A stretch of DNA of 19,987 nt from a virus. Taxonomy: Duplodnaviria > Heunggongvirae > Uroviricota > Caudoviricetes. The notes under the pieces were generated by a model. It did not search any database and was not told the DNA's origin. It saw only the letters and a program-made list of their open reading frames with translations. Every line of letters starts with the position of its first letter. The stretch's first letter is position 1. Of this stretch, positions 1 through 8,370 are shown piece after piece. The position numbers and the translations under genes were made by a program. Location of the stretch: positions 1-19,987 of the IMG/VR virus record IMGVR_UViG_2541047875_000009; one strand, given 5' to 3'.

Positions 1-1269
1 ATGCCAAAACTCACAGATATGCAGATCCGCGCATGGATAAAGGCGGGAGACAGATTTGATGGCAAGGCAGACGGCAACGGCCTTTATATTTGCTACCCCA
101 AAAACTACACAGTCCCGTTCTGGCGATTCCGATATAAGCTCGCAGGAAAACAGCGGGCTATGGTTATCGGCTCTTACTCCGAACTGTCACTATCAAAAGC
201 CAGAGAAACAGCAAAAGAGCTGTCAGCCAGAGTTGCTCTTGGCTATGACGTAGCAGCAGAAAAACAGGAACGAAAAGCTGAAGCACTGGCAAAAATGGAG
301 GCTGAGAAAAACGCCATGCGCGTTTCAGATCTGGCCGCCGAATACTTCGAGCGACAGATACTTCCGAGATGGAAACATCCCGATATCCTTCGCCGGAGAA
401 TTGATAAGGATATTAACCCCTGCATTGGGCATATGAAGGTAGAGGACGTTAAGCCACGCCACATTGACGACATGTTGAAAGGTATCGTTGACCGAGGAGC
501 ACCAACGATAGCAACAGATGTATTACGCTGGACACGCCGTATCTTTGACTATGGGATAAAACGCCACGCTCTGGAGATAAACCCTTGTTCAGCGTTTGAA
601 GTATCTGATGCTGGTGGTAAAGAGGTTTCCCGCGACCGTTGGCTAACTCGCGATGAGCTTATCAGGCTATTCGAGGCTATGCGCACCGCAAAAGGATTCA
701 GCCGCCAGAACGAACTGACATTTAAGCTATTGCTGGCACTATGCGTTCGTAAGATGGAGTTATGCGCCGCACGATGGGAAGAGTTTGATTTAGATGGTGC
801 GGTATGGCATTTGCCGGAAGAACGCAGCAAAAACGGAGACCCTATTGATATACCTCTACCTTCTCCTGCCGTTGAATGGTTGAGAGAGCTACACACCTTT
901 TCATGTAATAGCGCATGGGTGCTTCCAGCTAGGAAGATGCAAAACAGAATGATCCCACATATTCAGGAAAGCACTTTACCCGTAGCACTGGCTAAGGTTC
1001 GCGCCGAAATGCCGGATGTGCCTAATTTCACGATTCACGACTTCCGGCGTACCGCACGTACTCATTTAGCAGCATTGGGTGTTGATCCTGTCGTAGCGGA
1101 ACGATGCCTCAATCATCGCATTAAGGGTGTGGAGGGGATTTATAACCGCCATCAGTATTTTGATGAGCGTAAAGCTGCGCTGGCACAGTGGGCTGATCTG
1201 CTGGTGGCACTGGAAAGCGGGAAAGACTACAACGTAACGCCATTCGATAAAGCCCGGAGGCAAATGTGA
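1..1269 (+). CDS. int: P4-type tyrosine integrase (site-specific recombinase)
   Basis: 422-aa ORF starting at the first base of the window. C-terminal region has the R...HDFRRT...LNHR...Y pattern typical of phage-type tyrosine recombinases; overall layout resembles P4/CP4-type integrases. Assignment from translated sequence only. Confidence 0.9.
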   Translation: MPKLTDMQIRAWIKAGDRFDGKADGNGLYICYPKNYTVPFWRFRYKLAGKQRAMVIGSYSELSLSKARETAKELSARVALGYDVAAEKQERKAEALAKMEAEKNAMRVSDLAAEYFERQILPRWKHPDILRRRIDKDINPCIGHMKVEDVKPRHIDDMLKGIVDRGAPTIATDVLRWTRRIFDYGIKRHALEINPCSAFEVSDAGGKEVSRDRWLTRDELIRLFEAMRTAKGFSRQNELTFKLLLALCVRKMELCAARWEEFDLDGAVWHLPEERSKNGDPIDIPLPSPAVEWLRELHTFSCNSAWVLPARKMQNRMIPHIQESTLPVALAKVRAEMPDVPNFTIHDFRRTARTHLAALGVDPVVAERCLNHRIKGVEGIYNRHQYFDERKAALAQWADLLVALESGKDYNVTPFDKARRQM

Positions 1270-1916
1270 ACAACATCTTGAGAAAATCGCCAATCGAACG
1301 GCTTTGTTCATCTGTATCGATTACCCCTCATGAAATGGCTGTGGCCTTGGCTGGCCTAAACCCATCTATGCGCATTAGCGATGTGCCTGAGGAAAATTTC
1401 GAATATGTCGATTTTGTCAGAACTCATCTTGCCAGAGCTATCAAGGTGTACAGAGGTGAAAAAACTAGTAAAGACGAGCCTTGCCATGCCCTTGATATTT
1501 TCTTAGCTTCTTACCCATTTATTGACACAAATACACCAGAAATAATTGTTCAGAAAATATCAGAAGCGATTGATGATTTGCGTGGCACCAAGGGCTGGGA
1601 AGAAAAAGCCCGAAACCTTGGAGGACTCCAGTTAGTAAACTACATCAAAGAAACCAACCGCAGCGGACGTGGGCAGCATAGAAAGCAGGATGAGGAAAAC
1701 GGGACAATGAAAATGATGGGGTTGATAGTACATCTGCTGATAAAAAAATCAGGCTCATCTTCCTACATCCAAAATGGGAAACCTAATCGCACAGCTATAT
1801 ACCGTGACATAGAAACCTTAATCAAGGATGAAGGGATATCCCATAAAGGAATAGCAAAAGCCACATTCCTAGAAAAAATCTCACGGGCTTTATTAGCTGT
1901 CCACGATCTCGACTAA
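1266..1916 (+). CDS. hypothetical protein, AT-rich accessory ORF translationally coupled to the integrase
   Basis: 216-aa ORF with a GTG start at 1266 overlapping the int stop (ATGTGA) and GGAGG at 1256-1260. An alternative ATG start lies at 1335. Noticeably more AT-rich than int. No motif I recognise. Confidence 0.55.
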   Translation: MNNILRKSPIERLCSSVSITPHEMAVALAGLNPSMRISDVPEENFEYVDFVRTHLARAIKVYRGEKTSKDEPCHALDIFLASYPFIDTNTPEIIVQKISEAIDDLRGTKGWEEKARNLGGLQLVNYIKETNRSGRGQHRKQDEENGTMKMMGLIVHLLIKKSGSSSYIQNGKPNRTAIYRDIETLIKDEGISHKGIAKATFLEKISRALLAVHDLD

Positions 1917-2387
1917 TCACTTTTCACGCCCCTCCAAAGCAATGGCGGGGTATTACCTGTTTACCCATCTCCACCAGCATAGATAATTCTATGCCTAGCC
2001 ATTGCTATATCTGTTCGGCTTAGTTCATCTGTAATCACCCCATCTCTAAAAGATACGCCAGCTATCATTAGCCATTTTAAGCCATCATGAGCCATTATAA
2101 ACCGACTCAACCAATTGAATAATAAAAGATAAAAGGAAATGTAAAAACATGATGAATGACGATGAAAGATATAACTCTTTGATAAAACAATGATTTTTTA
2201 AACTGGTAACTAATTGAAAATAAAGAAAATAATTATCCCACCTGCATTTGCAATCTTTCAGTGGATCAGTATTTTTTCAATAGATTTATAATTTCTTTCA
2301 ATAGATTCTAGTCTTAATAGAAATACTGTATGGGCAACCACTAAACTTTAAGTAACTTCATGAGCTATCAGAGAGGTTACTAGAGAT

Positions 2388-2606
2388 ATGACAGCACACA
2401 AGCCAGCATCATCAGCTATCCCAACAACTGGATACATCCGTCGCTTTCGCATGCCGGAATTGCTAGGTGTTTCACTGCCTACTATTGATAGATGGGTTAA
2501 AAATGGCACTCTTCCACGCCCAGTGAAGCTGACAGATAACGTGACTGCGTTTGATGCGGTGGAAATTAATAACTGGCTGGCAGAACGCCGAAACACATCA
2601 GCCTGA
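2388..2606 (+). CDS. alpA: AlpA-family phage transcriptional regulator (HTH, excisionase-like)
   Basis: 72-aa ORF; the segment RRFRMPELLGVSLPTIDRWVKNGTLPRPVKL matches the AlpA/prophage CP4-57 regulatory protein helix-turn-helix pattern. GAGAGG-type RBS upstream. Preceded by about 470 bp of AT-rich non-coding DNA. Confidence 0.8.
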   Translation: MTAHKPASSAIPTTGYIRRFRMPELLGVSLPTIDRWVKNGTLPRPVKLTDNVTAFDAVEINNWLAERRNTSA

Positions 2607-2680
2607 TTAAATGACTACGGGGGATGACGTTCAACCCCACCAGCAAACAAAAGTAACTTAATTTAATAGCAGGTGTTTTT

Positions 2681-3505
2681 ATGAAACTGCGAAAAACGCC
2701 CGTACAGGGGCAGGGCTTCGTTCGGCCTGAAAACCAGAATCTGCAAAATTTCGGCGAAATTATCCCGGTTATTTCCGGCGTTATTGGCGGGCGTGAAGCC
2801 GCTGTTGTTAGCGCAAAAGCGTTACACAAAGCGTTGGGCGTGGGAAAAGACTTCTCTACATGGATCACTGATCGTATCTCTGAATATGACTTCACCATTG
2901 GGTACGATTACTCAGTCCATAAAACAATTTCCCCAAATTTGGGGAAAAGCCCGAATGGCGAGGCTTACAGCAAGATTAAGCACTCTGGCAGACCCGGTAA
3001 AGACTATCTGTTAAGTGTCGGAATGGCGAAAGAACTGGCAATGATCGAACGCACCGAACAGGGCCGCGCCGTTCGTCAGTACTTCATCAAATGCGAGGAG
3101 GAGCTACACAAGGTAGCGCCTGTACGTTCCGCAGCGTTACGCCGGGAACTGAAAGCCCGTATCACCGTAGCCAGCTACTTTAAGCCGATGTGTGCCGCGC
3201 TGGAGGCGTACCGCGCTGAACTGGGTAAAAACACGCTCCAGCACCACTACACCACGGAAGCCAATATGCTGGCGCGTATCGTGCTGGGTGGCATGACTGC
3301 AAAACAGTGGGCGCAGGCGAACGGCATCACAGGCGAACCACGCGACCACATGAGCACGCTGCAGCTTGAGCACCTTTCTTACCTTGAGCAGAGCAATATC
3401 ACGCTGATTGAGTTAGGCCAGGACTACCACCAGCGGAAAGCTGAATTAATTCGTCTTTCGCAACGCTGGTTAGCCCGCCGCATGGAGGTGAGCAGCCATG
3501 CGTAA
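2681..3505 (+). CDS. phage antirepressor, AntA/AntB-like N-terminal domain with a KilA-C-like C-terminal part
   Basis: 274-aa ORF. N-terminal region (AKALHKALGVGKDFSTWITDRI ... GKDYLLSVGMAKELAMIERTEQGRAVRQYFI) resembles the AntA/AntB antirepressor domain. Domain call is from recollection of the family pattern. Confidence 0.7.
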   Translation: MKLRKTPVQGQGFVRPENQNLQNFGEIIPVISGVIGGREAAVVSAKALHKALGVGKDFSTWITDRISEYDFTIGYDYSVHKTISPNLGKSPNGEAYSKIKHSGRPGKDYLLSVGMAKELAMIERTEQGRAVRQYFIKCEEELHKVAPVRSAALRRELKARITVASYFKPMCAALEAYRAELGKNTLQHHYTTEANMLARIVLGGMTAKQWAQANGITGEPRDHMSTLQLEHLSYLEQSNITLIELGQDYHQRKAELIRLSQRWLARRMEVSSHA

Positions 3506-3914
3506 ACCTGTCTTTTATGCCGGGCGCACTGAAATCTCTGTCATTAAATTCGATGACATTCAGGTGCGCATAGTGAGTATCAACGGCGAGCCGTGGTTTG
3601 TTGGCGCTGATGTGTGTGCTGCGCTGGAAATCAGCAATGTTACTGATGCTGTTTCAGTTCTGGATAACGACGAGGTAATGACCCTAGCTTTAACCGAGGG
3701 GCATTCCGGTAAGCGTGGTGGTGCCAGAAGCTGGAATGTTGTCTCTGAATCAGGTTTCTACAAACTGATCGCCCGCAGCCGTAAAGCTTCCACACCTGGC
3801 ACATTTGCGCACCGTTTCAGTAACTGGGTATTCCGCGAGGTTATTCCTTCAATCCGCAAAACGGGGAGTTATGGTGTTCCGTTTGCCATGCTGAATGATT
3901 TCAGTAAACGCTAG
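3498..3914 (+). CDS. Bro-N domain protein (phage antirepressor-type DNA-binding domain)
   Basis: 138-aa ORF overlapping the upstream gene by 8 nt with GGAGG at 3484-3488. The IKFDDIQVRIVSINGEPWFVGADVCAALE segment matches the Bro-N hallmark. Confidence 0.7.
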   Translation: MRKPVFYAGRTEISVIKFDDIQVRIVSINGEPWFVGADVCAALEISNVTDAVSVLDNDEVMTLALTEGHSGKRGGARSWNVVSESGFYKLIARSRKASTPGTFAHRFSNWVFREVIPSIRKTGSYGVPFAMLNDFSKR

Positions 3915-4113
3915 GCTGCATATCAACAGGAAGCCAGCAAACGCGGTTACAGGTTACAGCAATGCAAAGAGGCAAAAGATGCACTGGAACGAGAAGAGCG
4001 GGCGCTATGGCGTAAATATCAGCCTGATTTTCTGGAGGGTGAAAGCAATGTGTAACGATCCGAACGTTACAGAAAGAAAAAGCGCCCCGTTGCTAGATAA
4101 CAGGCAAAACAAA

Positions 4114-4134
4114 GGCGACCGGGATAGGTCGCCA
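4114..4134 (-). terminator. putative rho-independent terminator for the minus-strand regulator transcript
   Basis: Perfect 7-bp inverted repeat GGCGACC ... GGTCGCC (4114-4134); on the minus strand it is followed by TTTGTTTTG. Confidence 0.4.
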
Positions 4135-4199
4135 GTGGGAACAAAGGAAATCAAACGCATCGCCAACAATGCCAGATTTGCGGCTGGTGGGCAATGTGA

Positions 4200-4379
4200 T
4201 CAGTCAGATTTGGTTCGTTCCAGGGTTTGCAACGAGAGCTTTTTCCTGTGCTCTTTAAGGAATTTCTCAAGAGCAAACGAACAAGGTGCGAATCTTTCTG
4301 ATTCATGTTCATGCGCTATATTTTTGCGTCGTCTCTTACGAGTTGGTGATGGTGTTTTTGTTGATTCTGTGTCGCTCAT
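4200..4379 (-). CDS. small basic protein (59 aa), not in the supplied ORF track because it is under 60 aa
   Basis: Hand translation of the minus strand from ATG at 4379-4377 to TGA at 4202-4200 gives MSDTESTKTPSPTRKRRRKNIAHEHESERFAPCSFALEKFLKEHRKKLSLQTLERTKSD. Sits between the RHH gene and the terminator hairpin. Weak RBS. Confidence 0.3.
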   Translation of the reverse strand: MSDTESTKTPSPTRKRRRKNIAHEHESERFAPCSFALEKFLKEHRKKLSLQTLERTKSD

Positions 4380-4436
4380 GGTGCTGCCCTGTAAAGCAAT
4401 GCGCCTGCGTTCCTCAAACTATGGCGCTGATAGTGG

Positions 4437-4616
4437 CTATTCCTGCTCTTTGGCCTTGCGCCGCTGGCGGCGTTTGATCTCGCCTTCAAGTGCTGAAACG
4501 ATAAATTGTCCCGTGCTTTCGCCAGCTTCCTTTAAGTTTTCTACAGCGTCGGCTATTGCGTGGGGAACTCGTGCTTCAAGTTTCTTCGATTTTGCATTAA
4601 CGGCCTTCGTTGCCAT
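4437..4616 (-). CDS. ribbon-helix-helix (CopG/Arc-like) small DNA-binding regulator, putative repressor
   Basis: The listed 98-aa minus ORF is best started at its internal ATG (4616-4614), giving 59 aa MATKAVNAKSKKLEARVPHAIADAVENLKEAGESTGQFIVSALEGEIKRRQRRKAKEQE, with an AGAGGA RBS 8 nt upstream. Divergent from the replication operon. Confidence 0.55.
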   Translation of the reverse strand: MATKAVNAKSKKLEARVPHAIADAVENLKEAGESTGQFIVSALEGEIKRRQRRKAKEQE

Positions 4617-4636
4617 ATCTGGATTCCTCTTTATTA

Positions 4637-4718
4637 GGTGGCTGACAGTATACACACAAGAAATCGAAAAAACACTATTGACGTGGCTGACACCTGTTAC
4701 TAATATGGTGGCTGACAC
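4637..4718 (+). promoter_or_regulatory. divergent promoter/operator region: sigma70-like promoter overlapped by three direct repeats
   Basis: TTGACG (4678-4683), 17-bp spacer, TAATAT (4701-4706). Direct repeats GGTGGCTGACA at 4637-4647, CGTGGCTGACA at 4682-4692 and GGTGGCTGACA at 4707-4717 overlap the -35 and lie just downstream of the -10. Confidence 0.5.
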
Positions 4719-4816
4719 TTTTAGTTGTTGCAAGCAACAAAACGACGAAACCCCGCACTGTTGGAGCAGTAACGGGGCCTCTAACCACCAACGATAGCGA
4801 AAGTATCGAGGTAGCT

Positions 4817-5020
4817 ATGTTAAATCATACCACACACCCGCAAGGGCGGGATTCGCACAACCTGAATAAATACATCTGGCGTTTTATCGCCCTGAGCACG
4901 GCACAACCGCGCGTGATTACCATCGAGGCCACCAGCGAACAGAAAGCCCGTCAGCAATCCCCGGCTGGCTGCGTGATGGTATTTACTGCTCGCATCCGTC
5001 AGGGGGAATACTATGCGTGA
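4817..5020 (+). CDS. small protein, possibly Icd-like/Ash-family (P4-type islands)
   Basis: 67-aa ORF with GAGGT RBS; first gene downstream of the promoter. Family call is from memory of similar small proteins in P4-like prophages and is uncertain. Confidence 0.45.
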   Translation: MLNHTTHPQGRDSHNLNKYIWRFIALSTAQPRVITIEATSEQKARQQSPAGCVMVFTARIRQGEYYA

Positions 5021-5270
5021 TGAACGATTTATTCTTCTGGAGCAAAAATTCAGTGAAGCGCCAAAAAATGAAATTGATGCTCTTTTGCATATCGCGAATA
5101 TGCTAAAAGTAGCAACGTTCCTTATAGTTTCGAATCTGGAGCATGAAACGGCGTTAGATATACTGAACAGTGCTGTCGATTATTCTGAATATATTGCCGA
5201 GGATAAATACAGGCAATTACCAGATTTGTTAGCCCATAAATATAAAGAAGAACCTCACACCGGGAAATAA
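5013..5270 (+). CDS. hypothetical protein
   Basis: 85-aa ORF whose ATG overlaps the upstream stop (ATGCGTGA), indicating translational coupling. AT-rich. Confidence 0.5.
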   Translation: MRDERFILLEQKFSEAPKNEIDALLHIANMLKVATFLIVSNLEHETALDILNSAVDYSEYIAEDKYRQLPDLLAHKYKEEPHTGK

Positions 5271-5272
5271 AC

Positions 5273-5575
5273 ATGAAGAAGATTAAATTTACTGGCTTAA
5301 ATGCCAGCGGACAGACTCATCCGAAAATCAGGATCGGGGATATTTTCCGGGATAAATATGGTGACAGCGTGGTTATTAATTCCGTGTATGAACGGCACAT
5401 TACATACCGCCGCGCAGGGTATGACTATGACTGTGTGATGCCCGTTCATCAGTTCCGGCGTGATTTTTCACTGGTATGTGCAGCACCACGCAGTAAGCCC
5501 ACCAGTAAAGAGAAAGCACGGGCAAATATTCAGGTAATAAAGAACATGATTAACGCATTCAGGGGCAAGAAATGA
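5273..5575 (+). CDS. hypothetical protein
   Basis: 100-aa ORF immediately after the previous gene; its stop overlaps the start of the replication gene (ATGA). Confidence 0.5.
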   Translation: MKKIKFTGLNASGQTHPKIRIGDIFRDKYGDSVVINSVYERHITYRRAGYDYDCVMPVHQFRRDFSLVCAAPRSKPTSKEKARANIQVIKNMINAFRGKK

Positions 5576-7698
5576 AACGCGCACCGAATTTAAAGCACCA
5601 GCCGAAAGACAAAATGACGGAGGTGATTATCTTTGCGGGTAGTGATGCCTGGGCACATGCGAAAGAGTGGAGCGAATGGGCCGGAAAGCATATTGCGGCA
5701 GATGATACACATCCAGTTATTCTTGGACCGGAACAACTGGCGAGTCTGGCAGACACGCAAATCATCGACAAAGGGCGCTATTACGTGCGCGTTTATCGTG
5801 CTGGTGAAATATCAGAGCAGCACCTTACACAGATAGCGACACTGCTTGCAGTGGCGGGTGTGAAGGAGGCGCGTTGCTACCGCAGCTTTGTTGATCAGCA
5901 GCCGGAGGACTGGACACCGCGCATGACTGGACTGAAGGATGATGCGGAACGCGGTAACAGTCTGGTGATCAACCTTCCGGCGAAGACAAATTTCACCGGA
6001 AATTATGATGACGAATTAAAGCCTCGTGTTGAAAGTCGCGTCGATGGTGTTTTCTGGGTAACGCCCAAAGTGGACAAGCAGTCAGGCGAAATTATCCGGC
6101 CTGAGACGTGGTTATGTTCTCCGCTTGAACTACTGGGAACAGGAACAATCGGCAAAGAGCATTACCGCGTGATGCGCTGGAAAAAACCAGCAAACCATGA
6201 GGTCATTACAATGGCGGTCCCGTGCGGAGGCATTGGTGACCGTGACGGCTGGCGGTTGCTGAAAGACCACGGCCTTAACGTGACGACCAACGGCAAATAC
6301 AGGGCTATCCTGGCTGACTGGATGCAGTTAAGCGGAAACCATGAGGAATGGCAGTTAAGCACAACAACGGGGTGGCATTTTGGTGCGTACATCATGCCGG
6401 ATGGTTCGATCATCGGTGAATCAGAGAAACCCATCCTGTTTACCGGAAAAACTGCCGCTGTTAATGGCTATTCCGTGGCGGGAACAGCGGAGGGCTGGCG
6501 CGATACCGTGGCACGGCTGGCTGGTGGTAATCCGTCCATGATGCTGGGTGTGGCGGTATCGCTATCTGCACCATTAATCGGGCTGGTGGGTGCTGACGGC
6601 TTCGGGGTTCATCTTTTTGAGCAATCATCAGCAGGTAAAACCACCACACAGAACATTGCCTCAAGTTTATGGGGAGAGCCGGACGCGCAACGGCTGACCT
6701 GGTACGGAACGGCGTTAGGTATCGCCAACGAGGCCGAAGCACATAATGACGGGCTGTTACCCCTGGATGAAATAGGCCAGGCCGGAAACGCACGGGAGGT
6801 GTCCACGTCAGCCTATACGCTGTTTAACGGTTCCGGGAAATTACAGGGGGCGAAGGACGGCGGCAACAGGGAGATAAAACACTGGCGTACGGTGGCAATC
6901 AGCACCGGAGAAATGGACGTTGAAACATTCCTCAAAACGGAAGGGATAAAAATTAAAGCGGGGCAGCTTGTCCGTCTGCTTAACGTACCGATGGAAAAGG
7001 CCTCGCAGTTTCACGAATACAGCACCGGAAAGGCGCACGCAGACGCGTTAAAAAATGCCTGGACAGAAAATCACGGGGCGGCAGGTCGTGAGTGGGTTAA
7101 ATGGCTGGCAGGTCACCAGCAGGAGGCAAAGGACGCGGTAAAGGCATGTCGCGAGCGGTGGCGCAACCTGATACCGGAGAGCTACGGCGAGCAGGTTCAC
7201 CGTGTGGGGGAAAGATTCGCCGTACTGGAGGCCGCGCTTGTGCTTTCCGGTCATGTTACAGGCTGGGATGTTCAGGCGTGCCGTGATGCAGTTCAGCATA
7301 ACTTTAATGCCTGGGTGAAGGAATTCGGCACGGGCAACAGGGAATTTAAACAGATGGTTGAACAGGCTGAGGCGTTTTTGTCGTCGTTCGGGTTCAGTCG
7401 ATACCTTCCCTATCCAAACAGCGACGAGCGTGATTTACCGATTAAAGACCTTGCCGGATACAGAAAGGGGAGCATCAGAAACGAAGATGAGGAGTTCCGT
7501 TTTTACACGTTCCCGCATGTGTTTGAGGGTGAGATAGCACAGGGATTTAATCCGTCTCACTTTGCCCGCGCGTTGAGTGCTGCCGGAATGCTGGAAGCGG
7601 GAGGCGACCGCCGTTACAAGAAAAAGGCGCTCGGCAGGATTGGCGGGAAGCAGCATATTTTTTACGTGCTGATGTTCCAGCCTGAAGCAGAATATTAA
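5572..7698 (+). CDS. putative replication initiator / primase-helicase-like P-loop NTPase (satellite pri-rep type, possibly DUF927-like)
   Basis: 708-aa ORF. Walker A-like EQSSAGKTT (coding 6631-6645) and Walker B-like LLPLDEIG (about 6757-6780). Followed directly by an iteron cluster. Family name is from recollection. Confidence 0.75.
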   Translation: MKRAPNLKHQPKDKMTEVIIFAGSDAWAHAKEWSEWAGKHIAADDTHPVILGPEQLASLADTQIIDKGRYYVRVYRAGEISEQHLTQIATLLAVAGVKEARCYRSFVDQQPEDWTPRMTGLKDDAERGNSLVINLPAKTNFTGNYDDELKPRVESRVDGVFWVTPKVDKQSGEIIRPETWLCSPLELLGTGTIGKEHYRVMRWKKPANHEVITMAVPCGGIGDRDGWRLLKDHGLNVTTNGKYRAILADWMQLSGNHEEWQLSTTTGWHFGAYIMPDGSIIGESEKPILFTGKTAAVNGYSVAGTAEGWRDTVARLAGGNPSMMLGVAVSLSAPLIGLVGADGFGVHLFEQSSAGKTTTQNIASSLWGEPDAQRLTWYGTALGIANEAEAHNDGLLPLDEIGQAGNAREVSTSAYTLFNGSGKLQGAKDGGNREIKHWRTVAISTGEMDVETFLKTEGIKIKAGQLVRLLNVPMEKASQFHEYSTGKAHADALKNAWTENHGAAGREWVKWLAGHQQEAKDAVKACRERWRNLIPESYGEQVHRVGERFAVLEAALVLSGHVTGWDVQACRDAVQHNFNAWVKEFGTGNREFKQMVEQAEAFLSSFGFSRYLPYPNSDERDLPIKDLAGYRKGSIRNEDEEFRFYTFPHVFEGEIAQGFNPSHFARALSAAGMLEAGGDRRYKKKALGRIGGKQHIFYVLMFQPEAEY

Positions 7699-7720
7699 CT
7701 TCCCTGTGTGAGGTAAAAAG

Positions 7721-7846
7721 TTGCGGGTTATGCGGGTTATCCTGTGTATAAGTTAATTAAATGCATGATTAAAAAGGAAATCAATAACCCGCACGTAACC
7801 CGCAAAACGGCAGTTATAACCCGCAAATGTGCGATTGTAACCCGCA
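7721..7846. repeat. iteron cluster, putative replication origin
   Basis: Tandem direct TGCGGGTTA x2 (7722-7740), an AT-rich spacer (7751-7780), then inverted copies TAACCCGCA at 7785, 7796, 7817 and 7838 (spacings 11, 21, 21 bp). Starts 23 bp after the replication gene stop. Confidence 0.6.
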
Positions 7847-7908
7847 AAATTTCACTGTAAGAGTGTAAACAAGCGTAACTATCACGTTAAAACCGGAGAA
7901 CAAACAGC

Positions 7909-8334
7909 ATGACGGCGCAAATATCAGCTTACGGGCGGCTGGTGGCTGACCCGCAGTTAAAGACCACCAGCAAGGGCACACAAATGGCGATGGCGAGTAT
8001 GGCGGTCCCCCTTCCATGCAATCAGGCAGATGACGGAACGGCGACGATGTGGTTATCCGTCCTGGCGTTTGGCAGACAGGCTGACGCACTGGCAAAACAC
8101 CACAAAGGCGAACTGGTGAGCGTGGCCGGTAACATGCAGGTGAGCCGGTGGACGGGCCAGAACGGCGAAACGAGGCAGGGATGGCAGGTTATCGCAGACA
8201 GCGTAATCAGTGCGCGAACGGCGCGACCGGGCGGCAAAAAAGGCCAGCAGGGGCAGGCTACTGATGCACTGAACAGGGCAAAGCAACAGACAGGCCAGCA
8301 CGATGATCCGTACGGGGACGGGATACCGTTTTAA
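7909..8334 (+). CDS. single-stranded DNA-binding protein-like (OB-fold SSB family)
   Basis: 141-aa ORF. N-terminal GRLVADPQLKTT and the WLSVLAFGRQAD ... GELVSVAGNMQVSRWTGQNGETRQGWQV pattern resemble the SSB OB-fold; C-terminus ends in GIPF like the SSB acidic tip (DDDIPF). Confidence 0.65.
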   Translation: MTAQISAYGRLVADPQLKTTSKGTQMAMASMAVPLPCNQADDGTATMWLSVLAFGRQADALAKHHKGELVSVAGNMQVSRWTGQNGETRQGWQVIADSVISARTARPGGKKGQQGQATDALNRAKQQTGQHDDPYGDGIPF

Positions 8335-8370
8335 TTCACAACAGCGAACAGAGTAATTACAGGGGAAGGC

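Follow-up and report, generated by a model that had tools for sequence, protein, structure and literature searches.

The stretch of DNA analysed here (hereafter the window) comprises the 19,987 nucleotides at positions 1 to 19,987 of the IMG/VR virus record IMGVR_UViG_2541047875_000009 (Caudoviricetes), and its segment 4100-4830 holds the small gene ylcI, which is divergent from an icd-like gene heading a replication operon. Taken as a single explanation, it is likely that the window is an integrated phage satellite of the type of the Gram-negative phage-inducible chromosomal islands (PICIs), that this segment is its immunity and induction control region, and that control is exerted by a ribbon–helix–helix (RHH) repressor with its operators, by an antisense RNA and by an override arriving from upstream. 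The features computed here are the repeats themselves, the conservation of the promoters, the co-variation between the protein and its sites, a strand-specific RNA structure and the avoidance of stop codons in a long open frame.

The motif GTGGCTGACA occurs exactly three times on the plus strand (4638-4647, 4683-4692 and 4708-4717) and, with one mismatch allowed, gives five matches in the window against 1.27 expected, a number that was reached in none of 200 shuffles. A repeat search delimited an 11-nt family, (G/C)GTGGCTGACA, whose members are spaced 45 and 25 bp apart, and comparison with relatives indicates that the unit is better read as an 11-bp site, GTG-N5-CAC, which is often near-palindromic. 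The sites and the two promoters between which they are distributed are arranged as follows.

4104-4133, minus strand: intrinsic terminator of the leftward transcript of ylcI (and of a small open reading frame, ORF, described below), a hairpin with a T-run
4437-4616, minus strand: ylcI, 59 amino acids, YlcI/YnfO family, predicted RHH repressor, with an AAGAGGA ribosome-binding site
4638-4648, GTGGCTGACAG on the plus strand: predicted operator O1, overlapping the last 2 nt of the ylcI -10 element and spanning the predicted ylcI start
4647-4652, minus strand: TATACT, read from the sequence as the -10 element of the ylcI promoter, with a -35 element GTGTTT at 4670-4675
4678-4706, plus strand: rightward promoter of the icd-like/primase operon, TTGACG (4678-4683), 17 nt, TAATAT (4701-4706)
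4683-4693, GTGGCTGACAC on the plus strand: predicted operator O2, beginning at the last base of the -35 element and filling the first part of the rightward spacer
4708-4718, GTGGCTGACAC on the plus strand: predicted operator O3, beginning 2 nt past the -10 element and spanning the predicted rightward start (about 4713)

The sequence TTGACG-17-TAATAT is the sole σ70-like match within 3800-5100. On the opposite strand, the leftward transcript would end at the hairpin GGCGACC-TATCCC-GGTCGCC, followed by TTTGTTTTG (minus strand, 4133-4114), the stem of which displays compensatory changes in relatives.

The conservation of this arrangement was followed in a set of loci consisting of 50 with a YlcI homologue (pattern scan, one genome per species), 15 from E. 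coli and three found via the small ORF; promoter conservation was counted over 48 distinct intergenic regions. Three related sites, at about -101, -77 and -32 from the ylcI ATG, are present in nearly all loci (about 40), in genera that include Escherichia, Xenorhabdus, Pectobacterium, Yersinia, Serratia, Kosakonia, Proteus, Edwardsiella and Klebsiella, among others. The site at about -32, likewise found in nearly all loci, differs from O2 of the same locus by one to three mismatches. In these relatives a conserved TTGAC is invariably found right beside the middle site, and the distal and the proximal site each come after a TAnnnT of their own, which for the proximal site is mostly TATACT. The rightward promoter, taken as TTGAnn-16..18-TAnnnT, is kept in 44 of the 48 distinct intergenic regions and the ylcI -10 element (TAnnnT at -36 from the ATG) in 45.

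While the outer GTG/CAC bases and residue R16 of YlcI are constant, the central operator bases vary between loci in step with the predicted DNA-binding strand of the protein. At least 15 distinct site sequences were found, each paired with a different YlcI strand sequence; eight of these pairings are given below, and further types exist beyond them.

YlcI strand KKLEARV (K12/E14), site GTGTCAGCCAC: window, Xenorhabdus and one Pectobacterium
YlcI strand KRFDVRV or KRIDARV (R12/D14), site GTGTC(G/C)GACAC, e.g. GTGTCGGACAC: Pectobacterium, Yersinia, Leclercia and E. coli
YlcI strand QT(I/L/V)AARV (T12/A14), site GTGTTGAACAC: E. coli, Kosakonia, Pectobacterium and Edwardsiella
YlcI strand QQLNARF, site GTGAATCGCAC
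YlcI strand QKMSARV, site CTGGCACCCA
YlcI strand QK(L/V)Q(A/T)RA, site GTGGACTCCAC
YlcI strand QALKARV, site GTGTGGCCCAC
YlcI strand QSVTARI, site GTGTCTTACAC

Among all variable positions of YlcI, position 14 was the most informative on operator class (z 9.8 versus shuffles), followed by positions 5, 13, 4 and 12. Such a peak of information at the strand and at the N-terminal arm is what direct base reading would predict. There is thus strong comparative evidence for YlcI and the three sites as a putative repressor–operator pair, of which there would be at least eight specificity or incompatibility types in E. coli alone and at least 15 across the Enterobacterales. A preliminary description of this DNA had noted three operator-like repeats over a well formed promoter, and a hairpin terminator closing the divergent unit. 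The exact copies starting at 4638, 4683 and 4708, their placement against the -35 and -10 elements, the promoter and the terminator were all recovered here, and the operator-like character of the repeats is strengthened both by their positions relative to the two promoters, kept in 44-45 of 48 regions, and by their co-variation with the predicted YlcI strand.

The assignment of YlcI itself to the RHH proteins draws on its predicted fold and on a few motifs. The 59-residue product matches the NCBIfam model NF041551 (YlcI_YnfO_N) with 59 bits against a cut-off of 30 over residues 9-50, in agreement with its RefSeq name, and the YlcI model resembles RHH proteins such as ParD2, the RHH domain of PutA, CopA_SO, CdbA, Arc, VapB12, Rv0298, MazE9-N, NikR and omega. 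An hhalign alignment with a probability of only 10% pairs KSKKLEARVPHAIADAVENLKEA with KMPQFNLRWPREVLDLVRKVAEE of Arc (KKLEARVPH on QFNLRWPRE), a register that puts K12, E14 and R16 of YlcI on Q9, N11 and R13 of Arc, the positions with which Arc reads DNA. Across 31 YlcI homologues, P18 and the G32-E33-S34-T35 turn show no or almost no variation, as is characteristic of the proline and turn of RHH proteins, and their register agrees with that of Arc. That strand positions 12-14 are the best predictors of operator sequence lends indirect support to a base-reading two-stranded sheet of an RHH dimer. At the sequence level, YlcI of the window has no Pfam match and thus lies outside the curated RHH families, its homologues give only sub-threshold Pfam matches to the RHH-type families CB_ParB_C, PSK_trans_fac and DUF7557, a sequence search of the PDB with the YlcI profile returned chance matches only, and a Foldseek search against the PDB found nothing. 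YlcI is accordingly filed as RHH-like by predicted fold and motif, outside every curated RHH sequence family, and the initial impression of an RHH-like protein of 59 residues is borne out by this evidence and by the alignment with Arc.

Some E. coli loci (L061, L063, L066 and L069/L070) encode YlcI variants of 100-101 residues with a C-terminal extension (…GENPLVSSLDALAKVEQIGIKAAEEIGQLVTVAREELQRRK…), which may be an added oligomerisation or sensor domain; the operator type of L061, L063 and L066 is (A/G)TGAAACACAC. No functional description of YlcI/YnfO was found in the openly searchable literature, subscription-only papers lying outside the search, and in one gene list YlcI/YnfO is given only as an accessory gene (PMC13612085).

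A second layer of control would be provided by a short RNA transcribed from the minus strand across the start of the icd-like gene, with the following features.

4736-4817, minus strand: predicted antisense RNA of about 80 nt, with its own -10 element and terminator, antisense to the ribosome-binding site of the icd-like gene
4747-4781, minus strand: helix 3, the terminator stem, followed by a U-rich tail
4783-4789 with 4810-4816, minus strand: helix 1
about 4792-4808, minus strand: helix 2, a hairpin complementary to the hairpin beside the icd-like Shine–Dalgarno sequence
4824-4832, minus strand: predicted promoter of the antisense RNA, an extended -10 element TGGTATGAT within codons 3-6 of the icd-like gene
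4817-5020, plus strand: icd-like gene, first gene of the rightward operon, in the family of the P4 Eta/Kil C-terminus

The 100 nt from O3 to the icd-like ATG are strongly conserved across genera. In a covariation test on 30 distinct sequences aligned in the minus orientation, the three-helix structure had 93% of its cells paired and changes on both sides in 14 of 25 pairs, which was matched by none of 500 shuffles, and slid controls of the structure reached a pairing of only 35-48%. The predicted RNA (about 4817 to 4736), with a folding energy of -34.8 kcal/mol (z = -4.7), is complementary to the icd-like start codon, the Shine–Dalgarno hairpin and the leader, the loop of helix 2 being, in its commonest type, CUCC opposite an mRNA loop GGAG. 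Its -10 element in the window is TATGAT (4829-4824), with TGG before it. A TAnnnT precedes the conserved GGTTAGAGG by 42-45 nt in each of the 37 distinct sequences, a fixed spacing that holds despite three N-terminal types of the first gene and a shifting start codon; by eye and uncounted, the key A of this -10 element seems to fall at an icd-like third codon position that is T in the sequences inspected. A covariance model built on the element scores 86.5 bits at 4735-4828 (minus strand) and also matches loci outside its training set, including one with a different RHH gene (L068, described below), with no match in P4.

An alternative considered improbable is that there is no separate antisense RNA and that the stem-loop 4747-4781, with its flanks, works in the leader of the plus-strand mRNA, for example by stabilising it, by serving in its processing or by binding a protein. 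Such a role would suit the location of the element in the 5′ leader of the operon and the finding that helix 2 pairs equally well on either strand; moreover, the antisense transcript is itself a prediction from sequence, and a ProQ/FinO-family protein encoded by the island could bind a leader structure. Helices 1 and 3 nevertheless distinguish between the strands, with 110 G.U cells on the minus strand versus five on the plus strand and a pairing of 91% and 94%, respectively, versus 65% and 82%; over the element as a whole, the G.U cells number 110 versus seven. In addition, the stem-loop 4747-4781 is more stable on the minus strand in 22 of 23 loci (mean -21.9 versus -17.0 kcal/mol), U-rich tails of the GCUGUUUUU type follow it on the minus strand only, and the -10 element stands at its fixed distance in every sequence. 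The minus-strand excess of G.U cells and of pairing in helices 1 and 3 points to the three-helix structure belonging to a minus-strand RNA, and an antisense RNA spanning approximately 4817-4736 is predicted to be expressed.

The ProQ/FinO-family protein (Pfam, 84.8 bits) is encoded at 8371-8868. Binding to the terminator hairpins of antisense RNAs is a property of FinO-type proteins, so that the protein of the island could act on the predicted antisense RNA 4736-4817. In Rfam, no family matched, either in the whole window at the gathering score or in two sub-regions at E up to 10. A resemblance of the plus strand at 4773-4818, centred on CUAACCACCAA, to the antisense RNA family Plasmid_R1162 (12.4 bits, E 5.8), the sole RNA family to come up, was treated as chance, its score being far under the 55-bit threshold. 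Two copies of the antisense-RNA element are present in one island in the E. coli loci L069/L070 (2860-2954 and 2074-2167), together with a truncated icd-like start and a second copy of the small ORF, which suggests a tandem or recombined pair of control regions.

It is quite unlikely that the three repeats are bound by another protein and that YlcI is a mere neighbour. The protein in question could be AlpA, which would load on the repeats as an activator or antiterminator, or else the DUF927 primase-helicase, for which they would be origin iterons. AlpA is the sole experimentally supported regulator of such islands and activates downstream island genes (PMC6092414), recognition by a Pseudomonas AlpA of an element inside a promoter has been described (PMC9371919), and direct repeats beside replication genes are often iterons. 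The sequence of the sites, however, tracks the strand residues of YlcI, position 14 foremost. The E. coli locus L068 (contig DAEAOE010000114.1, 2136-2315) encodes at the position of ylcI an unrelated Arc-like RHH protein (…PFQFRLDPDLREKMEKAQQQDGDDSLAAWIKRIIRKEL…), a non-orthologous replacement of the repressor. Different inverted repeats stand there in place of the GTG-N5-CAC triplet, whereas the flanks have been kept, together with the antisense-RNA element and the small-ORF cassette. Origin-like iterons, for their part, are present elsewhere in the window: TAACCCGCA occurs six times at 7722-7846, directly 3′ of the DUF927 primase-helicase gene, as two inverted copies (7722-7739) and four direct copies (7784-7846; 11/21-bp spacing). 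PICI origins have been reported just downstream of the primase gene (PMC10111431), and these iterons are probably the replication origin of the island. Because they are a different repeat, the three GTGGCTGACA copies were ruled out as replication iterons.

The preliminary description had also pointed to a second, basic ORF of 59 amino acids in the divergent unit. This ORF exists as described and is preceded by a hairpin.

4200-4379, minus strand: small basic ORF, 59 amino acids, with the core ERFAPCSFALEKFLKEH in the window and the consensus ERFAPCAFALEKFLKEH
4401-4427, minus strand: hairpin GCGCC...GGCGC in the gap between ylcI and the small ORF, with compensatory changes in the inner stem across 16 E. 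coli loci

All 16 E. coli sequences compared, namely the window and 15 loci picked by DNA similarity, carry an undisrupted small ORF with a conserved ATG, in which every internal indel is a multiple of three. Outside Escherichia, ylcI is followed directly by a terminator, and neither tblastn nor a profile search found the small ORF in 50 loci of other genera; its family comprises only ten cluster representatives in 1.84 billion proteins, with no family match in Pfam or NCBIfam. The ratio pN/pS is 0.33 in the frame of the small ORF, 0.49 in the plus-strand frame that shares its third positions and 0.85-1.2 in the other frames, while changes synonymous in a single frame split 8 to 5; in a divergent pair the values are 0.59 versus 0.58 for the two frames, with a codon-position pattern that leans slightly towards the plus frame. 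By their codon statistics, the small ORF and the opposite-strand frame are therefore not separable, and the ORF may be a genuine accessory gene or may owe its existence mostly to the open plus frame; the odds of its being translated are put at about one half. An AF2 model of the product consists of two helices (pLDDT 70).

The hairpin at 4401-4427, which may be an attenuator, also precedes the small ORF in L068 and L069. The cassette formed by the hairpin, the small ORF, a conserved 15-mer and the terminator also follows other RHH genes. This 15-mer, GGCTGGTGGGCAATG (minus strand CATTGCCCACCAGCC), lies at 4182-4196, just past the stop codon of the small ORF, and is kept in all E. coli loci despite diverging flanks. 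The small ORF is not part of the core of the switch: confined to Escherichia, it has no general role in the unit in which the preliminary description had included it. It is also very unlikely that ylcI and the small ORF constitute an addiction or toxin–antitoxin-like cassette, with YlcI as an autoregulating RHH antitoxin and the overlap of the repeats with the rightward promoter secondary, since ylcI stands alone with a terminator next to it in all non-Escherichia loci examined, where the searches did not find the small ORF and no constant pairing of two genes is found, the rightward promoter, not that of ylcI, holds two of the three sites, and the small ORF lacks a family match and has its coding evidence split between the strands.

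The open frame on the plus strand leads to the third layer of the proposed control, which relates the region to the satellite phage P4.

3895-4797, plus strand: long open frame of 300 codons, lying antisense to the small ORF and ylcI and extending over the operators

This frame shares its third codon positions with both minus-strand ORFs and was for that reason first viewed as a shadow frame, a view that was dropped since an open frame is the rule in relatives, in which plus-strand frames of 700-1300 nt are usual. Its reading as an ordinary protein gene was also rejected, the product being rich in Cys, Ser and Arg, of antisense type and with no family match. The long frame runs in frame to the icd-like stop codon in 11 of 16 E. 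coli loci and in about 12 of 16 loci of other genera; in five of the 16 E. coli sequences (the window and four of the 15 other loci) it is out of phase with icd. Stop codons were counted in the approximately 195 nt between the ylcI and icd start codons in 37 distinct sequences, with the following result.

icd frame: stop-free in 23 of 37, 47 stops in total
second frame: stop-free in 0 of 37, 202 stops in total
third frame: stop-free in 3 of 37, 157 stops in total

Such avoidance of stop codons indicates that the open frame across the promoter–operator region is itself under selection in the relatives.

Scored with the NCBIfam model phage_ICD_like, the icd-like gene of the window reaches 65 bits and the eta ORF of P4 73 bits; a tblastn search of phage records with the Icd-like protein did not reach P4, which the family model does reach. 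The P4 eta ORF has 214 codons, begins at the end of vis and ends in the Icd-like domain. The early promoter of P4 is internal to eta, Kil being the short nested product, and immunity-specific termination is prevented when eta is translated from late transcripts that arrive from upstream (PMC10111431). The same succession is found here, with an alpA/vis homologue, a long ORF that holds an early promoter and has an Icd-like end, and a primase operon; the rightward promoter of the window occupies the position of the P4 promoter PLE, and in most relatives a long and a short ORF are nested in one frame. In the window, unlike in P4, the long frame stops at 4797 and is out of phase with icd (4817). 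P4 further differs in having neither a protein repressor nor a divergent gene in its immunity region, and its immunity factor is the sense-strand CI RNA, whereas no C4, IsrK or CI-like RNA was found in the window by Rfam, either at the gathering score or at E up to 10. Judged from the family match and the gene order, the PICI control region is a relative of the P4 eta/kil region in which the CI RNA would have been replaced by a protein repressor and an antisense RNA.

The mechanism that best accommodates these features, and that is regarded as probable when taken as a whole, would operate as follows. YlcI, produced from a weak leftward promoter, would bind the three 11-bp GTG-N5-CAC sites; at O2 and O3 it would exclude RNA polymerase from the rightward promoter, which would drive the icd-like gene, DUF4222, the DUF927 primase-helicase and SSB, and would so keep replication off, while at O1, at the start site of ylcI, it would limit its own synthesis to a steady level. 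A constitutive antisense RNA of about 80 nt, starting at the icd-like start codon and ending at its own terminator just before O3, would pair with any leaked leader and block initiation at the icd-like gene, and this loss of translation would probably also block the downstream primase genes. By analogy with P4, induction would come from upstream: a helper phage would switch on alpA, transcripts from the alpA side would cross the region on the plus strand and, being dependent on AlpA, would interfere with ylcI through convergent transcription. Where the long frame is intact, ribosomes arriving from upstream would translate straight into icd, and the antisense block would become irrelevant. Alternatively, a protein of the Bro zone or of the helper might inactivate YlcI.

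Several points weigh against this mechanism. The ylcI promoter has a poor -35 element (GTGTTT, 4670-4675) and that of the antisense RNA has none. Since ylcI and its sites are adjacent, some association between them is expected from linkage alone, and part of the co-variation is likely to be of this origin, although its peak at the strand positions argues against linkage as the sole cause. Helper phages turn on alpA, and AlpA is required for the induction of EcCICFT073 and sufficient for it if over-expressed (PMC6092414); given this sufficiency, a block by YlcI would have to be overcome or lifted at a step after AlpA. In the window the long frame is broken, and an override, if real, would work differently there. 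Lastly, binding, repression, expression of the RNA and override have all been inferred.

Two well known systems combine comparable parts. In the immI region of phage P22, the RHH repressors Mnt and Arc act at the divergent promoters Pmnt and Pant, together with the sar antisense RNA. Shared with P22 would be a small divergent RHH repressor, an operator over the repressed promoter, self-regulation and a short cis-antisense RNA over the ribosome-binding site of a gene of the repressed operon. There is no detectable sequence homology (hhalign to Arc, 10%), even though the strands align sensibly; moreover, there are three 11-bp sites here instead of one operator, the repressed operon encodes satellite replication functions instead of an antirepressor and the antisense RNA targets its first gene. 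In the copy control of plasmid pMV158, the RHH repressor CopG, encoded by the first gene of the operon that it represses, acts together with the antisense RNA II. Here, as in pMV158, replication genes would be controlled twice, by an RHH repressor of transcription and by a short antisense RNA that covers the site at which translation of the operon begins, but ylcI is divergent, whereas copG heads its repressed operon, no sequence relationship is apparent (hhalign, 3.6%) and the element is an integrated satellite that requires outside induction.

The remainder of the window is consistent with an island of this kind. The chromosome of E. coli MS 196-1 next to yicC is 100% identical to the window, and segments of the region were found in 1023 of 5426 complete E. 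coli genomes. Next to yicC, annotation and family scans give the order integrase, hypothetical gene, alpA, AntA, BRO-N pseudogene, ylcI (opposite strand) and icd-like gene, after which come a hypothetical gene, DUF4222, the DUF927 primase-helicase, SSB, ProQ/FinO, PerC (frameshifted) and three large unknown ORFs. The activator gene lies upstream of the switch and, like the genes of the Bro zone, points at it.

2388-2606, plus strand: alpA (Pfam Phage_AlpA, 26.4 bits versus a cut-off of 21)

Integrase domains and the DUF927 primase-helicase were also detected with Pfam. The gene set and order, with int, alpA, a primase replication module, an origin 3′ of the primase and mostly one direction of transcription, are those of a Gram-negative PICI. 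The module of ylcI, icd-like gene, DUF4222 and primase is also present in E. coli CFT073, in an island between roxA and phoQ that further encodes int, alpA, a P4-family primase and capsid genes, and that is presumably the published PICI EcCICFT073. The window thus belongs to the same kind of element as the published Gram-negative PICIs (EcCICFT073 and the cf-PICIs), in which four zones have been described, integration, Bro, replication and late (PMC10111431), a scheme that its layout fits. In this respect, the immunity or induction switch proposed in the preliminary description suits the PICI-type context; besides counting the small basic ORF in the switch, that proposal had missed the antisense RNA and the eta/kil-like frame.

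Neither Pfam nor PADLOC pointed to any capsid, terminase or redirecting gene in the window. Three consecutive large ORFs annotated as hypothetical (9935-17282; 843, 686 and 925 residues) lie in the late or cargo zone and matched nothing in Pfam or PADLOC. As PICIs usually carry capsid or defence genes in that zone, these ORFs may encode a cargo system not yet described. The BRO-N gene (3498-4055) is a pseudogene with an internal stop at 3912-3914 and is intact in E. coli STEC388. An ORF at 19151-19987, which runs off the end of the window, matches models of type I restriction–modification specificity subunits (PADLOC Specificity_I, 391 bits).

Each part of the proposed switch is of a well known kind, whether the RHH repressor serving divergent promoters, the cis-antisense RNA that covers a ribosome-binding site or the nesting of eta/kil genes. 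The published model of PICI control consists of the activator AlpA only, the global repressor being called 'unclear', and the founding paper refers to the difference from Gram-positive islands, with their Stl repressor, as a mystery (PMC6092414); the published four-zone description mentions neither a divergent gene nor an antisense RNA (PMC10111431). Searches for PICI with ribbon-helix-helix, PICI with antisense and Icd-like returned no functional description in the searchable literature, subscription-only papers being outside the search, and the function of YlcI/YnfO, the matched repressor–operator types, the antisense RNA and the link between PICIs and the P4 eta/kil genes were not found described there. 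It is therefore put forward tentatively that the region embodies an undescribed, three-layered form of PICI immunity, composed of a hypervariable YlcI with its operator triplets, a cis-antisense RNA acting on a kil/icd-type gene and the replication operon, and a stop-free read-through frame for an AlpA-driven override of both.

Gram-negative PICIs and cf-PICIs are widespread, carry defence and virulence genes and are being engineered as delivery vehicles, yet their published regulation amounts to AlpA alone. The present analysis offers a candidate repressor with defined operators, natural swaps of specificity (K12/E14 versus R12/D14) and an antisense RNA that has apparently never been looked for; the matched repressor–operator sets would also readily supply synthetic circuits with small orthogonal repressors. 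A function is proposed for the uncharacterised YlcI/YnfO family, and the Icd-like homology ties the control regions of PICIs to the eta/kil region of P4. If the proposal is correct, YlcI would be the 'missing' master repressor of Gram-negative PICIs, and its diversity would reflect immunity between satellites or between satellites and their helpers.

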